Source of the DNA: a virus
Lineage: Duplodnaviria > Heunggongvirae > Uroviricota > Caudoviricetes
Virus record (IMG/VR): IMGVR_UViG_2879770953_000006
Reading direction: 5' to 3' (one strand)
Length of the DNA stretch: 18,423 bases
Part shown: in pieces, positions 1 to 18,423 of the stretch
How the letters are laid out: every line of letters begins with the position of its first letter
How positions within the stretch are numbered: position 1 is the stretch's first letter
Program-made: the position numbers and the translations under genes
The notes under the pieces: generated by a model
The model's database searches: none
What the model saw: only the letters and a program-made list of their open reading frames with translations
Told to the model about the DNA's origin: nothing

Positions 1-302
1 GAGCCGCAGAGGGGAAGTTGCGTCCATTTTGAGGGAAACGGAGCAAAAAACCGCCATTCATACCCTGAATCAATCAGAGCCATCCAGTTTAATCGTCGGT
101 TCCGTTCATATGGAGCAAAAGTGGTGTTGAAGAAACATCCGTTTTGTGGTGTTTTTTTAATCTTTTTGGGGTTTTAATTCCTATCGATGAACTGGTGGCG
201 AACTGTGCAGGGTTGGCGTAACCGGGTACGGAAACCGGCGAGCCTTTCGGCTCCCCCACACAGCCCGCCATAAATCGCGAATGTGACTGTGCAAACGATA
301 TG

Positions 303-323
303 AAAAAAGACGCGGGCGCGTCT
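303..323 (-). terminator. Rho-independent terminator (tR'-like) downstream of segment-A Q
   Basis: On the minus strand a GC-rich hairpin (AGACGCG / CGCGTCT, 308-323) is followed by a T6 run (rc of A6 at 303-308). Lies about 90 nt downstream of the Q stop. Confidence 0.55.
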
Positions 324-385
324 CATATCGCTCCGTAAACATCCGGGACGCCAATCCCGACGCCAGATTTTGCTGGCGCGTGAGG

Positions 386-415
386 AATATAGCCCCGGAT
401 AACAAATTGAGTCAA
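386..415 (-). promoter_or_regulatory. Putative late promoter (PR'-like) overlapping the Q stop codon
   Basis: Minus strand reads TTGACT (rc of 410-415), 18-nt spacer, TATATT (rc of 386-391). Position immediately after Q mirrors lambda PR'; the short distance to the terminator at 303-323 suggests a small 6S-like RNA. Confidence 0.4.
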
Positions 416-966
416 CAAACGGTTTTTAGATCCCCGGAAGAGAATGCATCACGCATCGGTAGATAGAGCATATATTCAGCAAGATTTAGCCATACATCTA
501 CCCGACTGCAGCACGTCCGGAAACACCACTCAGGGTGTGCGTCATTCAGCAATTCAGCCATTTTACGCTTAGTCATCCCCCGCCCTTCATACCGTTGCCG
601 GAGGACACTAATCAATCCAGGATGCTCTGCCAGCACCTCACTTATGACTCTATCAATACATAACGCCTCTGCATCAGTACAATGCGCCAGCCAGGTCTTT
701 TGCTTGCCATTGATCATCTCTCGCAAAAACGCTTCCAGCTCAGGTTTCTCTATTCCCGCTTTTTTCATCCTGCGCAGGGCTTCATTGACGGCTGTTTTCG
801 TCAATTTTTTGGATGCCAGCAACTGGTTAAACATATTTCCCGTCTTACCGCCGCCAATATACGACCAGCGCCCCCACATGCGCAGTTTTCCCTGAATCCA
901 GACACTTTCCAGCGTGGTGAGACGAAGGTGTTCCCCGCTTTTGCCTGTATTTGTTGGGTAAATCAT
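412..966 (-). CDS. Putative antitermination protein Q, 82/QuuD-type (184 aa)
   Basis: ORF-track ORF 412..1086; preferred start is the ATG at 966, which overlaps the upstream gene stop (ATGA) and has SD AAGGAAGG 7 nt upstream. WGRW...GGGK motif resembles QuuD-type Q proteins by recollection. Last gene of the nin block, followed by promoter and terminator. Confidence 0.55.
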   Translation of the reverse strand: MIYPTNTGKSGEHLRLTTLESVWIQGKLRMWGRWSYIGGGKTGNMFNQLLASKKLTKTAVNEALRRMKKAGIEKPELEAFLREMINGKQKTWLAHCTDAEALCIDRVISEVLAEHPGLISVLRQRYEGRGMTKRKMAELLNDAHPEWCFRTCCSRVDVWLNLAEYMLYLPMRDAFSSGDLKTVC

Positions 967-1253
967 AAATAACCTTCCTTTCTCCAGATTTCTTGTGTGC
1001 GAAAAACACCTTCTGCATGCATCAGGCGTAATTCTTCTTTGGTGTAATCGCTGGTTTTTACCCGCCCGTCGATTAAATCGTGGCATGAGCTACAGGCAAT
1101 CGCTGCCTGCATATCGTGTGGTTTTGTCGCTGTTCCGCACGTCCCCGCCAGCCTGTAATGCGCCAGCACAGAAGTTTCGGGATTGTGATTGCAGTAGCCA
1201 GGAATTCTGACGGTGCACATCTGCCCCCGCGCCGCTTTACGTAAATCCACCAT
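963..1253 (-). CDS. YbcO-like nin-region protein (DUF1364-type putative nuclease), 96 aa
   Basis: Translation MVDLRKAARGQMCTVRIPGYCNHNPETSVLAHYRLAGTCGTATKPHD...SSCHDLIDGR closely matches my recollection of E. coli DLP12 YbcO. TAATG stop/start overlap with the upstream gene. Confidence 0.75.
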   Translation of the reverse strand: MVDLRKAARGQMCTVRIPGYCNHNPETSVLAHYRLAGTCGTATKPHDMQAAIACSSCHDLIDGRVKTSDYTKEELRLMHAEGVFRTQEIWRKEGYL

Positions 1254-3188: not shown

Positions 3189-3344
3189 TTACTCCTCAGG
3201 TTCGTAAGCTGTGAAGACAGCGACCTCCGTCTGGCCGGTTCGGATTCGTACCTCGCAGAGGTCTTTCCTCGTTACCAGTGCCGTCACTATGACGGTTAAA
3301 CAGATGACGATCAGGGCGATTAACATCGCCTTTTGCTGCTTCAT
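3189..3344 (-). CDS. hok: Hok-family type I toxin (51 aa), copy 1
   Basis: Translation MKQQKAMLIALIVICLTVIVTALVTRKDLCEVRIRTGQTEVAVFTAYEPEE matches HokD/RelF. ATG at 3342-3344 with SD AAGGAG. CDS is 100% identical in nucleotides to the copy at 16525-16680. Confidence 0.9.
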   Translation of the reverse strand: MKQQKAMLIALIVICLTVIVTALVTRKDLCEVRIRTGQTEVAVFTAYEPEE

Positions 3345-3401
3345 AGCCTGCTTCTCCTTGCCTTTCGGCACGTAAGAGGCTAACCTACATTTGTGAGACA
3401 T
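3189..3401 (-). CDS. mok: Mok-like in-frame upstream extension of hok (70 aa ORF)
   Basis: An ATG at 3399-3401 opens the same frame 19 codons upstream of hok (MSHKCRLASYVPKGKEKQA-MKQQ...), as in chromosomal mok/hok pairs. Absent from the second hok copy. Confidence 0.45.
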   Translation of the reverse strand: MSHKCRLASYVPKGKEKQAMKQQKAMLIALIVICLTVIVTALVTRKDLCEVRIRTGQTEVAVFTAYEPEE

Positions 3402-3682
3402 AGATTGGGCCTCAGATTAATGTTAAGCGTCTTGCAGGACGCGTAATGTTAACTGGGGCTTTTCTCTGTCTGCCTTACAGTGGCATGCCCGAGGCAGACA
3501 GCCTCAAGCACCCGCAGCAATCTTACCGATACCGATAAGAAAACGCTATTTTTTATTGCCAGCACCTTCTATCCAGGCTAATTTATCTGCGTCAGAACGG
3601 CGCAATGCGCTCGCCTGAGATACGTTTACTTGCCATGGTAACAACAGGTAACGGCAATTGCTGTTTCTGTTTTGTTTCCTTC

Positions 3683-9695: not shown

Positions 9696-9998
9696 ATGAG
9701 CAGAAAAACCCAACGTTACTCTAAAGAGTTCAAAGCCGAAGCTGTCAGAACGGTTCTTGAAAATCAACTTTCGATCAGTGAAGGCGCTTCCCGATTATCT
9801 CTTCCTGAAGGCACTTTAGGACAATGGGTTACCGCCGCCAGAAAAGGGCTCGGTACTCCTGGTTCCCGCACGGTGGCTGAACTGGAATCTGAAATTCTGC
9901 AACTGCGTAAGGCGTTAAATGAAGCTCGCCTTGAGCGAGATATATTAAAAAAAGCAACAGCGTATTTTGCACAGGAGTCGCTGAAAAATACGCGTTAA
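9696..9998 (+). CDS. IS600-like OrfA (100 aa)
   Basis: Translation MSRKTQRYSKEFKAEAVRTVLENQLSISEGASRLSLPEGTLGQWV...; HTH plus leucine-zipper arrangement typical of IS3-family OrfA. Confidence 0.9.
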   Translation: MSRKTQRYSKEFKAEAVRTVLENQLSISEGASRLSLPEGTLGQWVTAARKGLGTPGSRTVAELESEILQLRKALNEARLERDILKKATAYFAQESLKNTR

Positions 9999-10033
9999 TC
10001 GAACAATGGCGACAACAATTTCCCATTGAAGCG

Positions 10034-10852
10034 ATGTGTCAGGTATTTGGTGTATCCAGGAGCGGTTATTACAACTGGGTACAGCATGAACCCTCAGACA
10101 GAAAACAAAGTGATGAGCGGCTAAAACTGGAGATTAAGGTGGCACATATCCGCACTCGCGAAACATATGGAACCCGGCGGCTCCAGACGGAGCTGGCAGA
10201 GAATGGCATCATCGTTGGTCGTGACCGACTGGCACGTCTTCGTAAGGAGCTGAGGCTACGCTGTAAGCAGAAACGCAAGTTCAGAGCGACTACGAACCCG
10301 AACCACAATCTGCCAGTTGCGCCAAATCTGCTGAACCAGACGTTCGCTCCTACAGCACCAAATCAGGTCTGGGTGGCGGACCTGACGTATGTTGCCACAC
10401 AGGAGGGATGGTTGTACCTCGCTGGCATCAAAGATGTTTATACGTGCGAAATTGTCGGCTACGCCATGGGAGAGCGCATGACAAAAGAGCTGACAGGTAA
10501 AGCCCTGTTTATGGCGCTCAGGAGCCAGCGCCCACCTGCCGGGCTAATCCACCACTCTGATCGAGGTTCACAGTACTGCGCATACGATTACCGGGTCATA
10601 CAGGAGCAGTTTGGTCTGAAAACATCAATGTCGCGTAAAGGTAACTGTTACGACAACGCTCCGATGGAAAGCTTCTGGGGAACGCTGAAAAATGAGAGCC
10701 TGAGCCACTATCGTTTTAATAACCGGGATGAAGCCATCTCAGTAATACGGGAATACATTGAGATTTTCTACAATCGTCAGCGTCGTCACTCTCGTCTGGG
10801 GAATATCTCCCCGGCAGCCTTCAGGGAAAAATATCATCAGATGGCTGCTTAA
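10034..10852 (+). CDS. IS600-like OrfB transposase frame (272 aa; normally an OrfAB frameshift fusion)
   Basis: DDE transposase motifs (...WVADLTYV...HHSDRGSQY...NAPMESFWGTLK...). Confidence 0.9.
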   Translation: MCQVFGVSRSGYYNWVQHEPSDRKQSDERLKLEIKVAHIRTRETYGTRRLQTELAENGIIVGRDRLARLRKELRLRCKQKRKFRATTNPNHNLPVAPNLLNQTFAPTAPNQVWVADLTYVATQEGWLYLAGIKDVYTCEIVGYAMGERMTKELTGKALFMALRSQRPPAGLIHHSDRGSQYCAYDYRVIQEQFGLKTSMSRKGNCYDNAPMESFWGTLKNESLSHYRFNNRDEAISVIREYIEIFYNRQRRHSRLGNISPAAFREKYHQMAA

Positions 10853-10895
10853 AAAAAGAACAAATGGTAGTGTCCGCTATTGCCAGTACACCTCA

Positions 10896-11056
10896 GTCAG
10901 ATATGTCAGCAGCCCAAACAGCAGACTCCCCAGCACGCCTATTGCCGCCCACTGAGACGGGGAAAACCTGTCCAGCAACTGCAGGAACCAGTAGCCCGTT
11001 CCCACCGCTGACGTGGTGTATGACACACCTGTTGTGATTTTTTCCATCTGGTCCAT
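10896..11056 (-). pseudogene. S21-type pinholin, 3'-truncated by IS600
   Basis: Translation [54 protein letters not shown] closely resembles phage 21 holin S21 over 53 native codons. The reading frame then runs 5 codons into the IS600 end (EVYWQ, stop). Dual-start motif M-D-Q-M present; SD GGGAGA. Confidence 0.75.
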
Positions 11057-11363
11057 ACCCCGTCTCCCGTTATCCGGAAGCTGACAACAATAAAAAAGCC
11101 ACCAGTTAACTACTGATGGCTCTGATAACTCATGCAAGCGTCTCAGACGACCCACTGACACTACCGGTGAGTTTAACGATACCTTCCATTTGACTGGCTC
11201 ACTTTTTATGATGATGCCGGTGCATTTATCTCCAGCACCAGACTTTCTATCTCAACGCCATACGTTGCATTTTTGGTAATATCCGTCAGCGTCAGTGCAT
11301 TTAGTCCCACTGCCAGACTGTCTTTTATGGCCTGGAATGCCGGGCCAGTACGATGACGTAGTA

Positions 11364-11811: not shown

Positions 11812-12147
11812 ATGAAGTGGATTGTGATTGATACAGTTATCCAGCCATCATGCGGAATATCTTTTTCAGTCATATGGAGTAAAATAAAATTAATAATCTG
11901 GTATCAATCGGATGCTTTCTTACCTCCTGAAAGTATATTTACACTGACTCACACAGGCATCATGCTCAATAACAAAGTGCTACCTGTAACCATTTACAAC
12001 GTAGTACCATTCAATAAAACATTCTGGAATTTAATCAAAAACAGCCAGGAATGCCCTACAAATACAGATAACGTATTGAATGAATGCTTTAATAACCGTT
12101 GCACTCTGCAAATATGTCCTTATGGACTAAAACAACAAAGTCCATAA
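11812..12147 (+). CDS. Hypothetical protein (111 aa), AT-rich cargo ORF
   Basis: ATG with SD AGGAAA 6 nt upstream. The only plus-strand ORF with good signals inside the prophage; AT-rich codon usage; C-terminal Cys cluster. A hairpin at 12184-12199 (CCCCTC-CGGA-GAGGGG) lies about 37 nt downstream. Confidence 0.45.
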
Positions 12148-12594
12148 GGAGTTTACTCACATCTGACAAAATCAATATAAACAGCCCCTCCGGAGAGGGG
12201 CTGGAGAGTGGCGCTATGTGCCATTGCATGGTGCCGGGTGCCTCCCGGTGAATTCAGTACCAGCACCTGAATCCGCGATTATCCCATATACCTACTCGCT
12301 GATTGCCCCTCCGCACAGGGGGATTCACCATGCCAGTTTCTTTTAACAAACTCCCCGCAAACCAGACAACAGTCAACCGCCTGAATTGTGAAGTATTTAA
12401 AAATTTCTCCCGCTAACTGATACCCGGCTAACAGTCTGGCGTTTTCTTTTTCAGCAACGGGAAAGCAACAACCACCACACCCGCCACCAGCACACCGTCA
12501 GCCGGCACTGACATTATCCGGCTGCTGCAATGCCATTCACAAAAACAGTAAGCAATCACTTTTTACCGTAACAGGTGATAATCCAGATATGTAT

Positions 12595-13058: not shown

Positions 13059-13135
13059 TGGCGCGCTGTACTGGATTCGAACCAGTGACCGATTGCTTAG
13101 AAGGCAATTGCTCTGTCCGGCTGAGCTAACAACGC
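13059..13135 (-). tRNA. tRNA-Arg (anticodon UCU), phage-encoded
   Basis: rc reads GCGTTGTTAGCTCAGCCGGACAGAGCAATTGCCTTCTAAGCAATCGGTCACTGGTTCGAATCCAGTACAGCGCGCCA. Cloverleaf is consistent: 7-bp acceptor stem with one G-U pair, T-loop GGTTCGAATCC, anticodon loop CTTCTAA, 3' CCA. Confidence 0.85.
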
Positions 13136-13236
13136 TGAATACCGATAATGGACCGCCATCGGGGACCCGCCCCCCGCACCAACAACCCTGTTATCGTGTC
13201 GTCTGCTCTTCCTGATAAGCTAATGGCGGTTTGTGA

Positions 13237-13312
13237 TGGTGGCCCTTGCTGGATTTGAACCAGCGACCTGGCGATTATGAGTCGCTCGCTCTCACCACTG
13301 AGCTAAAGGGCC
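13237..13312 (-). tRNA. tRNA-Ile2 (anticodon CAU, ileX-like; formally could be a Met tRNA)
   Basis: rc reads GGCCCTTTAGCTCAGTGGTGAGAGCGAGCGACTCATAATCGCCAGGTCGCTGGTTCAAATCCAGCAAGGGCCACCA, which closely resembles E. coli ileX. Confidence 0.8.
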
Positions 13313-13351
13313 GGGAGCAGAATAATAACGGTCCGTAATTAATTTCGCAAT

Positions 13352-13373
13352 AAAAAACCCGCTCAGCGGCGGG
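13352..13373 (-). terminator. tR'-like intrinsic terminator downstream of PR'
   Basis: Minus strand: CCCGC-CGCTGA-GCGGG hairpin followed by T6 (rc of AAAAAACCCGCTCAGCGGCGGG). Confidence 0.65.
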
Positions 13374-13407
13374 TTGTAGAAACTCTTCTAACGTCAGGCA
13401 TAAAACG

Positions 13408-13450
13408 CCCATCATTATGACGAATTTACCACAGATTCCGGAAAAATCAA
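13408..13450 (-). promoter_or_regulatory. Lambda PR'-like late promoter with qut/pause element
   Basis: Minus strand TTGATT-16 nt-TAAATT-cgtcaTAATGATGGG, compared with lambda PR' TTGACT-17 nt-TAAATT-tgactcAACGATGGG (from memory). Sits 5 nt after the Q stop. Confidence 0.7.
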
Positions 13451-13455
13451 CCTTG

Positions 13456-14277
13456 TTACCTAGTTACCTTTTTTAACTGCCGCTCAGCCCATGCTTCTTC
13501 AATATCAAACCGGGTCACCAGCGCATCATAAAATTTCTTAACTGTTTTTTCCCATGACGCGCGTGTTATCTGGTTTGTCACCTCGCATATAGCATTAAAT
13601 GCCTCCGTTGATGGTAGTCTTTCATAGCCACGACCACCACAACGCTGGCAGTCTCTGATAACAGGCATACCACGTTTTACCGACTCTTCACGATGAATGG
13701 CGACACCACGCCCACGGCAATCCTTACAGGCGGTGGAAACCTCACCCTTTCCGCCACACTCCGGACAGGCAACTTTTACCACCTCCCTGACTTTTTTCCA
13801 TTCTTCCCAGTAAGACGGATACACACCTTTCGTGCACTTTGCCCATACCGGCGGCTTACCATCCGGATACTGGATCTTGTTTGTAAAAACTATGCTTTCA
13901 ATAAATTTTTCCCCATAGCAACAAGGGCACTGCTTTTTACTCGCTGCGCTGCGGGCATAATCCTCAAAAGCGTACGAAGCCATAATGCGCATCACTACCG
14001 GTTTTATTTCTGCCGGAAGTTTTCTCAACGCCGCCACACGATCGCACCGACTGAGTGCATAATCTGCCAGTAATTCTGTTGCCCGCGCCCTGTCATTCAT
14101 ACTGATGCCCATTTTCCCCAGGAACGCAGAAAAACCCATCTCAGCCCGATTCTGTGTCATGCCCTGCGCGGCCATCACATCAGTGATACTCAGCGCATCT
14201 TTTGACGTTGAGGCCGATGCATCGGTCAGGCCAGGGGATTTTGGGGAGTAGTATTTCGGTAAATCTTCCAGTTTCAT
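13456..14277 (-). CDS. Q: Antitermination protein Q, lambda type (273 aa), with extra Cys-rich insertion
   Basis: Collinear with lambda Q: KYYSPKSP / KFHSPKSP, SITDVMAAQGM / SGTDVMAAMGM, ASYAFEDYARSAA / ATFAYADYCRSAA, C-terminal ...WEKTVKKFYDALV...VTR. Four CxxC motifs, three of them CxxCxGxG. Confidence 0.85.
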   Translation of the reverse strand: MKLEDLPKYYSPKSPGLTDASASTSKDALSITDVMAAQGMTQNRAEMGFSAFLGKMGISMNDRARATELLADYALSRCDRVAALRKLPAEIKPVVMRIMASYAFEDYARSAASKKQCPCCYGEKFIESIVFTNKIQYPDGKPPVWAKCTKGVYPSYWEEWKKVREVVKVACPECGGKGEVSTACKDCRGRGVAIHREESVKRGMPVIRDCQRCGGRGYERLPSTEAFNAICEVTNQITRASWEKTVKKFYDALVTRFDIEEAWAERQLKKVTR

Positions 14278-14291
14278 TTTTTGACCTGCTC

Positions 14292-14648
14292 TTAATGCAT
14301 TATGGGGTAAATCTTCACCCCCAGACGTCCACCAGATACTGGCTGACCACGAACGATATTGATTTCATCAAACTGCTCATCGTCCATTAACACTCCCGCA
14401 TGCGTCAGCGCATCCAGCGGTGCTTTCAGGATATTGTCCAGGTCGCGACGACGCTTATCCGGTGGCTCTGCAATCACCTTTATCGCCAGCCTTCCGGACA
14501 GGCTTAATTTCAGCCGCTGCTGGCGAACAATAAGCGCCACAGCCCGGCGATAACGCTTTCCCTCCTCCGAGATAAAATATGTGCTGCCACGGCGTCGCCA
14601 GTAAGTGTTCACCGTCGGCGGGTAAGGTAAAACCAAATCTATGAGCAT
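14292..14648 (-). CDS. rusA: RusA-family Holliday-junction resolvase (118 aa)
   Basis: Motif PDKRRRDLDN, overall similarity to RusA, SD AGAGGTGA, position just upstream of Q. Confidence 0.85.
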   Translation of the reverse strand: MLIDLVLPYPPTVNTYWRRRGSTYFISEEGKRYRRAVALIVRQQRLKLSLSGRLAIKVIAEPPDKRRRDLDNILKAPLDALTHAGVLMDDEQFDEINIVRGQPVSGGRLGVKIYPIMH

Positions 14649-14660
14649 CAGTCACCTCTT

Positions 14661-15710
14661 TTACCCAAGCACGCCAGTTGCAAAGGCGTGATCAAGAAAA
14701 CGAAAAATTAAATCAACCTGAGAACCATGCTTTTCTTCGAACGCCAGAGGATCCGCATGAAGCTCGTTGTGATGCTCCCGACACAGCGGTAGCGTGAAAA
14801 TATCGTGAGATTTTGTCCCCATTCCGCCCTGACCATGACCAATCAGGTGATGGGGATCGTCGGCTGGCTTACCACAACACGCACACGGCTGTGTCTTCAC
14901 CCAGCGTTTGTATTTCTCGTTAACCCAACTGCGACGTTTAGGTCGTTTCATGAAAGATTCCGGAGACTCAGGATCAACGGCAATGCTGACCACCGTCTTT
15001 TCCTGTTGTGGGTTCTGTTGCTGGTGGGCGTGAGGCAGCGGCGCAAGATTTTTTGTGCGCTGTTTCAGTATGCTGGTGGCGGTCTGCTCTCCCGGTACGA
15101 TGTCGCTTTCACGGTACATTGAGCGGATTTTTTCCGCACGCAACCCCAGCGAACGACGTAATACCGCTTCCGGTAGCGCGTCCGCCACCTGATTGCGGAC
15201 CGCCCACCAGGATAATTCAGCCAGAGATAATTCACGCTCCTGCGTACCGCTTATTGCGTGACCGATGACGTCAATCATCCATGCTGACAGGTTTTGATGA
15301 GCAAGTTGCTCGAGTGATTCGGATGTCTGGTCACGCAACTGGTTGTCGCAGTGCCAGCACAACACCATTGCGCCGGTACCATAACGGTGAATGACGGTTT
15401 CGCTGTGATGATAATCGCCGTGTGGCCACTGGCAGGATTTAATATGGCGCAACAGCCAGTCAGACAATGCACCAGCACCACCAGCAGCACGAATCACCTG
15501 TGCGTTACTGAAAAACGGCAGCAATGTTTTGTCTTCCACCAGCGGCTGGCGAACGGCAGGAACGACCCCGGACGGCAGATTACGCATGCTTTTCGGTTCC
15601 GGCTCCACCAGTAACCGGGTATTGTGGAATACCGGCATGGATTCACGACCGGGCTTAAGGACCACCAGCCCGAGTTCCGGAACCAGAACAGGTCGAAGTA
15701 ATACCCGCAC
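14661..15710 (-). CDS. YdfU-like phage protein (DUF968-type by recollection; 349 aa) with C-terminal HNH-like Cys/His motif
   Basis: GTG start with SD GGAGG 5 nt upstream. C-terminus CACCGKPADDPHHLIGHGQGGMGTKSHDIFTLPLCREHHNELH. Same length and synteny as Qin-prophage YdfU as I recall it. Confidence 0.65.
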   Translation of the reverse strand: MRVLLRPVLVPELGLVVLKPGRESMPVFHNTRLLVEPEPKSMRNLPSGVVPAVRQPLVEDKTLLPFFSNAQVIRAAGGAGALSDWLLRHIKSCQWPHGDYHHSETVIHRYGTGAMVLCWHCDNQLRDQTSESLEQLAHQNLSAWMIDVIGHAISGTQERELSLAELSWWAVRNQVADALPEAVLRRSLGLRAEKIRSMYRESDIVPGEQTATSILKQRTKNLAPLPHAHQQQNPQQEKTVVSIAVDPESPESFMKRPKRRSWVNEKYKRWVKTQPCACCGKPADDPHHLIGHGQGGMGTKSHDIFTLPLCREHHNELHADPLAFEEKHGSQVDLIFRFLDHAFATGVLG

Positions 15711-16524: not shown

Positions 16525-16680
16525 TTACTCCTCAGGTTCGTAAGCTGTGAAGACAGCGACCTCCGTCTGGCCGGTTCGGATTCGTACCTCGCAGAGGTCT
16601 TTCCTCGTTACCAGTGCCGTCACTATGACGGTTAAACAGATGACGATCAGGGCGATTAACATCGCCTTTTGCTGCTTCAT
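16525..16680 (-). CDS. hokD: HokD (RelF) type I toxin, 51 aa
   Basis: Identical CDS to 3189-3344, SD AGGAGAAG, located 71 nt downstream of relE as in the relBEF operon. Under 60 aa, so absent from the ORF track. Confidence 0.9.
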   Translation of the reverse strand: MKQQKAMLIALIVICLTVIVTALVTRKDLCEVRIRTGQTEVAVFTAYEPEE

Positions 16681-16751
16681 AGCCTGCTTCTCCTGTCAAC
16701 GCAAAGCAGAAGTGTCACCTTCGGTGCGAAACAGAGATGTCATGCTTTGGT

Positions 16752-17039
16752 TCAGAGAATGCGTTTGACCGCCTCGCTATATACTTCCGAGCGTTCTCTT
16801 TTCCCAACAGAAATCACGAAAACGACAACTTTCTCGTCTATAACCTGGTATACAAGGCGATAGCCTGAAGACCGGAGCTTAATCTTGTAACAATCAGGCA
16901 TACCACGGAGCTTGTTTGCTTCAATCCGGGGTGACTCAAGTACTTCAACCAGCTTCTTTTTCAACTGTTCACGTACCGTCGAGCCCAGCTTTCGCCATTC
17001 CTTTAGTGCCCGCTCGTCAAAATCCAGAAAATACGCCAT
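16752..17039 (-). CDS. relE: RelE mRNA interferase toxin (95 aa)
   Basis: Translation MAYFLDFDERALKEWRKLGSTVREQLKKKLVEVLESPRIEANKLRGMPDCYKIKLRSSGYRLVYQVIDEKVVVFVISVGKRERSEVYSEAVKRIL is essentially identical to E. coli RelE as I recall it. Confidence 0.95.
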   Translation of the reverse strand: MAYFLDFDERALKEWRKLGSTVREQLKKKLVEVLESPRIEANKLRGMPDCYKIKLRSSGYRLVYQVIDEKVVVFVISVGKRERSEVYSEAVKRIL

Positions 17040-17278
17040 CAGAGTTCATCCAGCGTCACACGTACTGGCTTAGGATTACGAAGCCGTTCTTTCACTATCT
17101 CCACAAGTTCAGCATCTTCATCACTCAGGAGTGTCTGTTTGAACGGCAAGCGTTCATTGTCAGCGATATACTCGAGCATGAGACGAAGCGCTTCAGAAGG
17201 AGTTACACCCATTTTTTCAAGCGCGGCGTAAGAACGCGCTTTAAGTTCATCGTCAATACGCAGGTTAATGCTACCCAT
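17039..17278 (-). CDS. relB: RelB antitoxin (79 aa)
   Basis: Translation MGSINLRIDDELKARSYAALEKMGVTPSEALRLMLEYIADNERLPFKQTLLSDEDAELVEIVKERLRNPKPVRVTLDEL; ATGA overlap with relE. Confidence 0.95.
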   Translation of the reverse strand: MGSINLRIDDELKARSYAALEKMGVTPSEALRLMLEYIADNERLPFKQTLLSDEDAELVEIVKERLRNPKPVRVTLDEL

Positions 17279-17561: not shown

Positions 17562-18423
17562 TGAGGTGTACTGGCAATAGCGGACACTACCATTTGTTCT
17601 TTTTTTAAGCAGCCATCTGATGATATTTTTCCCTGAAGGCTGCCGGGGAGATATTCCCCAGACGAGAGTGACGACGCTGACGATTGTAGAAAATCTCAAT
17701 GTATTCCCGTATTACTGAGATGGCTTCATCCCGGTTATTAAAACGATAGTGGCTCAGGCTCTCATTTTTCAGCGTTCCCCAGAAGCTTTCCATCGGAGCG
17801 TTGTCGTAACAGTTACCTTTACGCGACATTGATGTTTTCAGACCAAACTGCTCCTGTATGACCCGGTAATCGTATGCGCAGTACTGTGAACCTCGATCAG
17901 AGTGGTGGATTAGCCCGGCAGGTGGGCGCTGGCTCCTGAGCGCCATAAACAGGGCTTTACCTGTCAGCTCTTTTGCCATACGCTCTCCCATGGCGTAGCC
18001 GACAATTTCGCACGTATAAACATCTTTGATGCCAGCGAGGTACAACCATCCCTCCTGTGTGGCAACATACGTCAGGTCCGCCACCCAGACCTGATTTGGT
18101 GCTGTAGGAGCGAACGTCTGGTTCAGCAGATTTGGCGCAACTGGCAGATTGTGGTTCGGGTTCGTAGTCGCTCTGAACTTGCGTTTCTGCTTACAGCGTA
18201 GCCTCTGCTCCTTACGAAGACGTGCCAGTCGGTCACGACCAACGATGATGCCATTCTCTGCCAGCTCCGTCTGGAGCCGCCGGGTTCCATATGTTTCGCG
18301 AGTGCGGATATGTGCCACCTTAATCTCCAGTTTTAGCCGCTCATCACTTTGTTTTCTGTCTGAGGGTTCATGCTGTACCCAGTTGTAATAACCGCTCCTG
18401 GATACACCAAATACCTGACACAT
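17562..18423 (-). mobile_element. IS600-like element, second copy, inverted; partial (runs off the window)
   Basis: rc of 17562-17604 matches the right end of copy 1 (…GTACACCTCA). OrfB is complete; OrfA and the left end lie beyond the window. Confidence 0.85.
17605..18423 (-). CDS. IS600-like OrfB transposase (272 aa)
   Basis: Differs from copy-1 OrfB at 2 residues (L/Q in RLRKE(L/Q)RLR and T/A in GERM(T/A)KE). Confidence 0.9.
   Translation of the reverse strand: MCQVFGVSRSGYYNWVQHEPSDRKQSDERLKLEIKVAHIRTRETYGTRRLQTELAENGIIVGRDRLARLRKEQRLRCKQKRKFRATTNPNHNLPVAPNLLNQTFAPTAPNQVWVADLTYVATQEGWLYLAGIKDVYTCEIVGYAMGERMAKELTGKALFMALRSQRPPAGLIHHSDRGSQYCAYDYRVIQEQFGLKTSMSRKGNCYDNAPMESFWGTLKNESLSHYRFNNRDEAISVIREYIEIFYNRQRRHSRLGNISPAAFREKYHQMAA

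Follow-up and report, generated by a model that had tools for sequence, protein, structure and literature searches.

From its sequence, we think it highly probable that the window (the whole stretch of 18,423 nucleotides of DNA that we analysed) contains a complete Q-dependent regulatory cassette for late genes, belonging to the lambda Q family and located in a Qin-like defective prophage. All parts of the cassette are on the minus strand: the gene for Q (13456..14277, with its ATG at 14277), which encodes a QuuQ-like long form of 273 amino acids; a PR'-like promoter with a pause element; and a terminator close behind. The cassette is ordinary and widespread, it is already annotated, and its class is well understood. 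One feature is of real interest: besides the lambda-type cysteines, Q has a second Cys4 module, which is uncharacterised and strictly conserved and lies where lambda Q touches the polymerase.

A lambda-type Q with a 68-residue insertion

The protein is a member of the lambda Q family. It matches Pfam's Antiterm family (PF03589) with 183.7 bits (the cut-off is 26.7; E = 6e-55), and its residues 178-265 cover the full profile (1-87). It also matches PHROG 127 ("anti-termination protein Q-like") from end to end, in a single stretch (E = 5.8e-111). Its nearest relatives with solved structures are chains of lambda Q (7UBM/7UBN, 4MO1, and 7UBJ-L). At E <=0.01, a Pfam scan reported only Antiterm and DnaJ_CXXCXGXG, so there was no match to the Pfam families for Q82 (PF06530) or Q21. 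PF27659 (CHP02642, which corresponds to TIGR02642) is listed for many homologues; its match to this protein is faint, lambda Q also matches it weakly, and we consider it uninformative about the insertion.

According to BLASTP, Q from the window is 31% identical to lambda Q (E = 3e-41), with gaps in the central region only. In HMMER's alignment, residues 1-113 pair with residues 1-113 of lambda Q, and residues 182-273 pair with residues 116-207. Lambda Q has 207 amino acids, and the 66 extra residues form one insertion (residues 114-181, or 68 residues in place of two from lambda). An earlier reading of the sequence without database searches (the sequence-only reading) had described a protein of 273 amino acids that was collinear with lambda Q (about 207 amino acids) and had an inserted segment with additional CxxC motifs. 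These alignments agree with that description: the insertion holds two of the protein's four cysteine motifs.

The collinear regions include the N-terminal torus segment, the four-helix body with its helix-turn-helix, and the C-terminal helix. In lambda Q, residues 61-113 and 153-207 make up a helical body with a helix-turn-helix, while residues 114-152 are a zinc-ribbon arm (PMC9388147). Given these boundaries and the split in the HMMER alignment, the insertion lies exactly at the junction of the body and the arm. Codons 1-44 (14146..14277, minus strand) are collinear with lambda 1-44 and are the counterpart of the N-terminal segment of lambda Q that refolds into a torus at the RNA exit channel. 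This segment has low pLDDT, as one would expect if it were disordered in the free protein. G39, L268, and T272 are invariant across the window's Q, YdfT from E. coli K-12, and lambda Q (as G39, L202, and T206), and all three are residues that matter for lambda Q (PMC9388147).

Two additional cysteine pairs are strictly conserved

The translation of Q contains four cysteine motifs (all on the minus strand): CPCCYGEK (motif 1; C117 and C120; 13906..13929), CPECGGKG (motif 2; C171 and C174; 13744..13767), CKDCRGRG (motif 3; C184 and C187; 13705..13728), and CQRCGGRG (motif 4; C210 and C213; 13627..13650). Three of the four fit CxxCxGxG exactly, as had been noted from the sequence alone. Motif 1 is degenerate in this protein; most relatives have the full CxxCxGxG there, and most have four exact repeats.

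Both HMMER and MAFFT align motif 3 with C118/C121 of lambda Q and motif 4 with C144/C147. The 22-residue spacing of motifs 3 and 4 is the same as in lambda, and in both alignments the flanking residues agree (G.PV...C.RC.G.GY.R.P). BLASTP placed lambda C118 on motif 1 instead, and this is less supported than the placement on motif 3 by the other two tools. Given the HMMER and MAFFT alignments, the preserved spacing, and the complete Antiterm match at residues 178-265, motifs 1 and 2 are the additions. This rules out that the extra cysteines are misaligned parts of the canonical zinc finger, which was the refutation that the sequence-only reading had set for itself.

When Q is aligned with 55 full-length relatives (55-97% identity), which come from Klebsiella, Enterobacter, Salmonella, Citrobacter, Serratia, Pantoea, and others, none of the eight cysteines varies. 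More distant representatives often have CxC at motif 3, yet they keep the four cysteine pairs. Some shorter forms (231-242 amino acids) also have four cysteine pairs, and in these only ~10 residues separate motif 1 from motif 2. The stretch between these two motifs exists in at least five unrelated versions that differ in length, which give rise to classes with 260, 271, 273, 276, and 277 amino acids. Both ends of the stretch are conserved (GFIEA.VFT.K and VRE..RV.C). In comparison to the copy from E. albertii, dN/dS is 0.15 for the insertion and 0.14 for all of Q, so the insertion is under purifying selection. We did not find any description of a four-motif lambda-type Q in the literature that we searched, and this absence holds for that literature only.

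Lambda Q appears to be the exception rather than the rule. We counted the motifs in representatives of at least 180 amino acids, taken from the 150 clusters (at 50% identity) that scored best, a set that is biased by the choice of query: 36 have three or four CxxC-type motifs and 13 have two. Also, the PHROG 127 profile has 253 positions, and it is matched by the window's Q in one piece and by lambda Q in two, so lambda Q looks like a short form of its own family. Judging from these sequences, the long form is the commoner build among the representatives that we retrieved, as well as the consensus of PHROG 127.

A predicted second zinc site

We analysed two AlphaFold models with DSSP, one for the full-length protein (mean pLDDT of 74.5) and one for residues 108-222 (mean pLDDT of 76.4). 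Both models have the same order of elements: a short strand, the knuckle of motif 1, a 12-residue strand, two short helices at the tip, a 12-residue return strand, the knuckle of motif 2, another short strand, the knuckle of motif 3, a strand-helix-strand arm like that of lambda Q, and the knuckle of motif 4. The two long strands (residues 125-136 and 159-170) form a 12+12-residue beta-hairpin, and motifs 1 and 2 are at its two ends, that is, at its base. Across the insertion, pLDDT is only 61-86. From the sequence conservation and the models, it is most likely that a second zinc ion is coordinated by C117/C120 and C171/C174, and that these pairs clamp a long beta-hairpin, with a variable tip, at its base. 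The segment that encodes the insertion, and hence this probable zinc site, is at 13735..13938 (minus strand; delimited using HMMER and DSSP).

The sequence-only reading had called three of the four motifs DnaJ-type. This is borne out for the motifs and the local fold, and not for the profile score or the likely pairing of the motifs. Pfam's DnaJ_CXXCXGXG (PF00684) gives 28.4 bits, which is below its cut-off of 32.7, and this sub-threshold match includes motifs 2-4 only (residues 171-218, aligned to positions 1-52 of 65). NCBIfam's DnaJ models score far under their cut-offs, and the Pfam scan of the protein found neither a J domain nor a DnaJ C-terminal domain. The PF00684 match puts motifs 2, 3, and 4 on motifs 1, 2, and 3 of DnaJ. 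We read this as a likeness in the motifs and the local fold, in which the lambda-type site (motifs 3 and 4) would correspond to the inner zinc centre of DnaJ. From the homology to the solved site in lambda Q and from the secondary structure, we infer tandem pairing (1 with 2 and 3 with 4) in a two-zinc module that resembles the cysteine-rich domain of DnaJ.

If the resemblance to DnaJ were complete, then the pairing would be nested (1 with 4 and 2 with 3), the two motifs of lambda Q would be the counterparts of 1 and 4, and the inserted residues would make up an inner zinc hairpin. We consider this to be unlikely. As described above, HMMER and MAFFT put lambda's motifs on 3 and 4, with the spacing and the flanks kept, and the Antiterm profile is fully matched at residues 178-265. 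Even the alignment to PF00684 maps motifs 2-4 to the first three motifs of DnaJ, and both of the extra motifs are N-terminal to the lambda-type site, so the nested order cannot be reproduced. Finally, the variation in length falls between motifs 1 and 2, which fits a hairpin that is clamped at its base. We therefore prefer the tandem arrangement.

The promoter, the pause element, and a candidate Q-binding element

Downstream of Q, we found a promoter that resembles PR' of lambda. Its -35 hexamer, TTGATT (13445..13450, minus strand), aligns with TTGACT of lambda. The hexamer was described as fourteen bases past the stop codon of Q; by coordinates, it starts at 13450 and the gene ends at 13456. 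It is followed, on the same strand, by a 16-nt spacer (TTTCCGGAATCTGTGG; 13429..13444), a -10 hexamer that is the same as in lambda (TAAATT; 13423..13428), six nucleotides (CGTCAT), and a sigma-dependent pause element (13408..13416), which is AATGAT (13416-13411) and then GGG (13410-13408). As in lambda, where the pause element is AACGAT-GGG, it is 6 nt from the -10 hexamer. Overall, TTGATT-16-TAAATT-6-AATGAT-GGG in the window compares to TTGACT-17-TAAATT-TGACTC-AACGAT-GGG in lambda. By analogy, we predict that transcription starts at 13416 and that the polymerase pauses near 13401-13400 (+16/+17).

The window has a single occurrence of the pattern TAAATT-N6-AAYGATGGG, and in shuffled sequences we expect 0.01 occurrences, even with one mismatch. 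At the pause element, AACGATGGG is kept in most of the related loci. The earlier suggestion that this layout is close to that of lambda PR' thus holds up. A generic sigma-70 scanner did not call the promoter, which can be explained by its fitting only 8 of the 12 consensus positions, so the argument for the promoter comes from its homology to lambda and from how well it is conserved in related loci. In lambda, a -35-like TTGACT precedes the pause element; this is not recognisable in the window, where TCGTCA fits 3 of the 6 positions.

To describe this conservation, we compared 46 loci that encode relatives of this Q, with one genome per species. Thirty-six of these (36 distinct loci, with Q proteins that are 47-100% identical to that of the window) share an ungapped block downstream of Q. 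The best-conserved part of the block is the spacer and not the hexamers; its consensus is TTTCC[CG]GAAWCTGTG, or TTTTCC[CG]GAA[AT]CTG[TG]G in longer form. This motif occurs once in the window, as compared to 0.13 times expected by chance (with two mismatches allowed). The spacer of a promoter is normally unconstrained, and the Q-binding element of lambda sits between the -35 and the -10, so it is probable, from these sequences, that the conserved spacer is the Q-binding element of this subgroup. (The element in lambda is described in PMC9388147.)

The same spacer element is common to Q proteins that are only 47-60% identical and to all five classes of hairpin tip, which argues that the variable tip does not read the element. 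The loci with more distant Q proteins, including Qin of K-12, have other spacers and retain the pause element (AAYGATGG).

The terminator and a short leader RNA

A terminator scan identified an intrinsic terminator, similar to tR', at 13352..13375 (minus strand). It has a GC-rich 7-bp stem (AACCCGC/GCGGGTT, at 13375-13356), a 6-nt loop, and a T run that ends at 13352. With a start at 13416, the predicted terminated RNA would be about 65 nt long (13352..13416, minus strand) and would be an analogue of the 6S RNA of lambda. These coordinates match the very short 6S-like RNA, with a terminator about 65 nt downstream, that had been predicted from the sequence alone. In the relatives, there are terminators at the same position with different stem sequences, and for 30 of 39 modules we predict an RNA of 58-76 nt. 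A very short terminated RNA thus appears to be typical of the subgroup and not peculiar to the window.

No family in Rfam 15 matched 13352-13416 at the gathering score. With relaxed thresholds, there were matches to isrK (16.5 bits, with 50 needed), which overlaps this position almost exactly, and to Trp_leader (26.7 bits, with 41 needed). We rejected both and read them as the generic resemblance of RNAs with a hairpin and a terminator, not as homology. Elsewhere in the window, at 303-1086, there is a DUF1133/Q82-like gene, which has a short RNA of its own (isrK).

Could the terminated RNA be the point of the cassette, with antitermination of lesser importance in this defective prophage? Transcription from PR' promoters is constitutive, and the terminated products accumulate, with StxS, IsrK, and the 6S RNA of lambda as precedents (PMC7547250), and the predicted RNA (folded as 13416-13348) forms three hairpins with -19.6 kcal/mol and a z score of -2.2. 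However, it reaches the threshold of no Rfam family, with isrK far below, and the sequence from the pause element to the terminator is poorly conserved among the relatives, so we find this very unlikely.

The surrounding prophage and the distribution of the cassette

The neighbours of Q are those of a typical boundary between the nin region and the late genes in a Qin-like lambdoid prophage. Upstream of Q are genes for RusA (14292-14648) and a DUF968 protein (14661-15710), both identified with Pfam, and beyond these are hokD, relE, and relB. The first gene past the terminator is a tRNA with a CAT anticodon (13237..13312, minus strand; annotated as tRNA-Ile by RefSeq), followed by tRNA-Arg (TCT; 13059..13135, minus strand). 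Both tRNAs are supported by ARAGORN, by Rfam, and by the RefSeq annotation of near-identical loci. Past the tRNAs are a DUF3927 gene, a PmrD/IraM-like gene on the opposite strand, a DUF1737 gene, and a class II holin. A plus-strand open reading frame that is antisense to Q (13693-14073, 126 amino acids) has no Pfam match, and we take it to be spurious.

The holin's profile has 64 positions, of which the reading frame covers only 1-54, and the frame adjoins an IS600-like element of the IS3 family (9696-10852). A second IS600-like copy is at 17605-18423. These copies hint at Shigella or a closely related E. coli as the host. With these copies on both sides and the holin cut off, this prophage segment is bracketed by insertion sequences and its late operon is truncated. 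In this window, the cassette may have little left to control.

The cassette is found far beyond this prophage. At 80% identity or above, the 1-kb cassette is present in 2609 of 5426 complete genomes of E. coli, with up to seven copies per genome. It is also present in phage mEp460_ev081 (99.3%), where it lies ~2.6 kb upstream of the lysis genes, in other coliphage records, and in an Stx2a-converting phage (88.6%). As for the window as a whole, no complete E. coli genome matches more than 44% of it in one place, and its exact context is present in four genomes.

[quoted passage not shown] The IS600-like flanks and the interruption of the late operon within the holin gene would fit, and the annotation of Qin of K-12, where there is a similar cassette, is that of a cryptic prophage. 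On the other hand, the open reading frame is intact and under purifying selection (dN/dS of 0.14), different genera retain the eight cysteines and the promoter elements, and the same cassette is in deposited phage genomes, including mEp460_ev081 and the Stx2a-converting phage. Decay may describe this copy, yet it leaves the design unexplained, so as an account of the cassette we consider it very unlikely. We return to the reading that this is a complete antitermination cassette.

Proposed mechanism

In lambda, sigma-70 re-binds DNA and causes a pause, Q docks on the paused polymerase, and the N-terminal part of Q forms a nozzle (PMC9388147). We propose that the cassette in the window would work in the same way. 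By homology to lambda, RNA polymerase would start at about 13416 from the TTGATT-16-TAAATT promoter. Region 2 of sigma-70 would re-bind the -10-like AATGAT-GGG (+1 to +9), and the polymerase would pause near +16/+17. Without Q, transcription would end at the hairpin and T run, leaving an RNA of about 65 nt. With Q, the helix-turn-helix body and the zinc-ribbon arm would bind the conserved spacer element (TTTCCGGAATCTGTG), and Q would dock on the paused polymerase. The disordered N-terminus (44 residues) would then become a folded nozzle at the exit channel for RNA, which would block the terminator hairpin and allow transcription to go on into the tRNAs and the lysis genes.

What might the predicted second zinc module do? 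In lambda Q, residues 110-112, 117, and 122-126 touch the zinc-binding domain of beta', and the tip of the arm touches the repositioned region 4 of sigma (PMC9388147). By analogy, the insertion would emerge from the middle of the surface that contacts the beta' zinc-binding domain in lambda. The extra module probably makes the arm stiffer or longer and changes the contact with the polymerase, rather than reading the Q-binding element. We also considered that, through the predicted second zinc-clamped hairpin, the Q proteins of the majority subgroup dock on the paused polymerase differently. This is a tentative and rather doubtful proposal. Several variants can be imagined: an added contact to polymerase or sigma, a fixed arm, or a reduced dependence on NusA. 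If docking does differ, then lambda Q, the textbook example, would be reduced and atypical for its own family, and the variable tip of the hairpin could be a sign that Q has adapted to the host or to elements that compete with it.

What is known about the mechanism of the Q family derives from lambda Q, a protein with only one zinc site. Should the extra module change the loading of Q onto RNA polymerase, then lambda would be an incomplete model for the control of late genes in many prophages, and perhaps also for the control of toxins in some of them. From the -35 hexamer through the terminator, the cassette takes up about 100 bp, and this part contains a clearly conserved candidate element, so it would be a handy template for experiments in vitro.

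Comparison with known systems

Lambda itself is the best-understood comparison. The N-terminal region, body, arm, and C-terminal region of lambda Q (PDB 4MO1 and 7UBJ-7UBN) are collinear with those of the window's Q. At PR', the -10 hexamer is identical, as are the 6-nt distance to the -10-like pause hexamer and the GGG that follows, and there is a terminator before the late genes. However, the two proteins are only 31% identical, and lambda Q lacks the 68-residue insertion and its two cysteine pairs. The spacer is 17 nt in lambda instead of 16 nt and has a different sequence, so the Q-binding element is probably different. The terminated RNA is also longer in lambda (~194 nt versus ~65 nt).

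The Qin prophage of K-12 has a Q of the same architecture. This is YdfT (QuuQ, 250 amino acids; a putative antitermination protein Q), and its alignment with the window's Q shows that both are built with four motifs. Its gene has the same neighbours, with DUF968 (ydfU) upstream and relBE-hokD further upstream, and the -10 hexamer, 6 nt, and AACGAT-GGG are again followed by a close terminator. Nevertheless, YdfT is only 44% identical to the window's Q, and its loop between motifs 1 and 2 is shorter. The spacer of its promoter, TTTTTCAAAAAATATGGA, differs from that of the window, which implies a different DNA specificity.

The leader RNA has the same genetic position and origin as StxS and the 6S RNA of lambda: all of these come from a constitutive late promoter with a terminator ahead of the late genes (PMC7547250). 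StxS is 258 nt and is processed to 74 nt, and 6S is ~194 nt, whereas the predicted RNA from the window is ~65 nt and shows no similarity to these in sequence or by Rfam. The phages with StxS have a Q of 144 amino acids, and the leader in the window goes with a lambda-type Q.

Outside of phage regulation, the closest comparison is the cysteine-rich domain of DnaJ/Hsp40 (PF00684; PDB 1EXK) and its relatives BSD2 and anti-TRAP. In DnaJ the pairing is nested, whereas we predict tandem pairing for the window's Q, which also carries a hairpin of ~50 residues between motifs 1 and 2. The DnaJ domain is part of a chaperone, while the module in the window is part of an arm that would bind DNA and RNA polymerase. 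The Q21 and Q82 families share the regulatory logic and the genome position of the window's Q.

Antiterminator cassettes from two prophages

At the left end of the window (191-1086, minus strand) we noticed another late-control module, which is unrelated to the Q cassette. Its open reading frame (412-1086, minus strand, 224 amino acids) matches the DUF1133 profile (E = 5e-108) and also has a weak match to Phage_antitermQ (Q82-type). On the 3' side of this gene lie the sequence TTGACT-17-TATATT and then the small RNA isrK (303-379, 75.6 bits). The C4 antisense RNA follows at 191-275 and has its a1b1 target at 340-392; all of these elements are on the minus strand. With both the DUF1133/isrK/C4 module and the Q cassette, the window contains antiterminator cassettes derived from two different prophages. 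A sok antitoxin RNA (3339-3513, minus strand, 118 bits) belongs to the left-hand prophage segment.

The Qin-like segment is flanked on either side by IS600-like IS3 copies (copy 1, orfA at 9696-9998 and orfB at 10034-10852, plus strand; copy 2, orfB at 17605-18423, minus strand). The holin ORF (10877-11161) ends early, at profile position 54 of 64. Four genomes of 4.5-4.6 Mb (CP026765, CP054892, CP097828, and CP026810) have the same IS-flanked arrangement and an identical Q protein. Upstream of the Q region is a hokD-relE-relB cluster (16525-17278, minus strand), as in the Qin prophage of E. coli K-12.

RNA genes downstream of Q

Directly past the terminator of the Q cassette, and upstream of the tRNA with a CAT anticodon (13237-13312, minus strand), there is a sigma-70-like promoter match (TTGCGA-17-TATTAT, 9/12; 13322-13350, minus strand). 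Given the location of this match, both this tRNA and the following tRNA-Arg (TCT; 13059-13135, minus strand) may be expressed independently of Q. The spacer of about 100 nt that separates the two tRNA genes (13136-13236, minus strand) has a G-rich tract (GGTGCGGGGGGCGGGTCCCC), and no tRNA was called within it. Stx phages are reported to have three tRNAs at the corresponding position, so the spacer may be a remnant.

Within the predicted Q-controlled transcription unit, the Rfam family of the small RNA STnc100 is matched strongly at 12173-12362 (minus strand; 132 bits, threshold 47). This match sits between a DUF3927 gene (12428-12559) and a PmrD/IraM-like gene (11812-12147, plus strand).

Variation around the PR'-like promoter

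In loci L005-L040, relatives from outside E. coli have an inverted repeat, AAATAGC...GCTATTT, in the interval that separates the stop codon of Q from the -35 hexamer (TTTACT); it lies immediately ahead of the hexamer and overlaps it. Variation in the inner arms is compensatory. This repeat, which has no counterpart in the window, could either terminate the transcript coming from upstream or be bound by a protein.

In some relatives (loci L028 and L042, and L016 and L032), the leader is longer and resembles in sequence the 6S RNA region of lambda (GAGGCGG.GCTTA.CAC.GATTCCGCCTAGTTGGT.ACTTCG); the terminator of these loci falls at about +130 to +170. Promoter and pause element on the one hand, and leader and terminator on the other, thus appear to form blocks that recombine independently.
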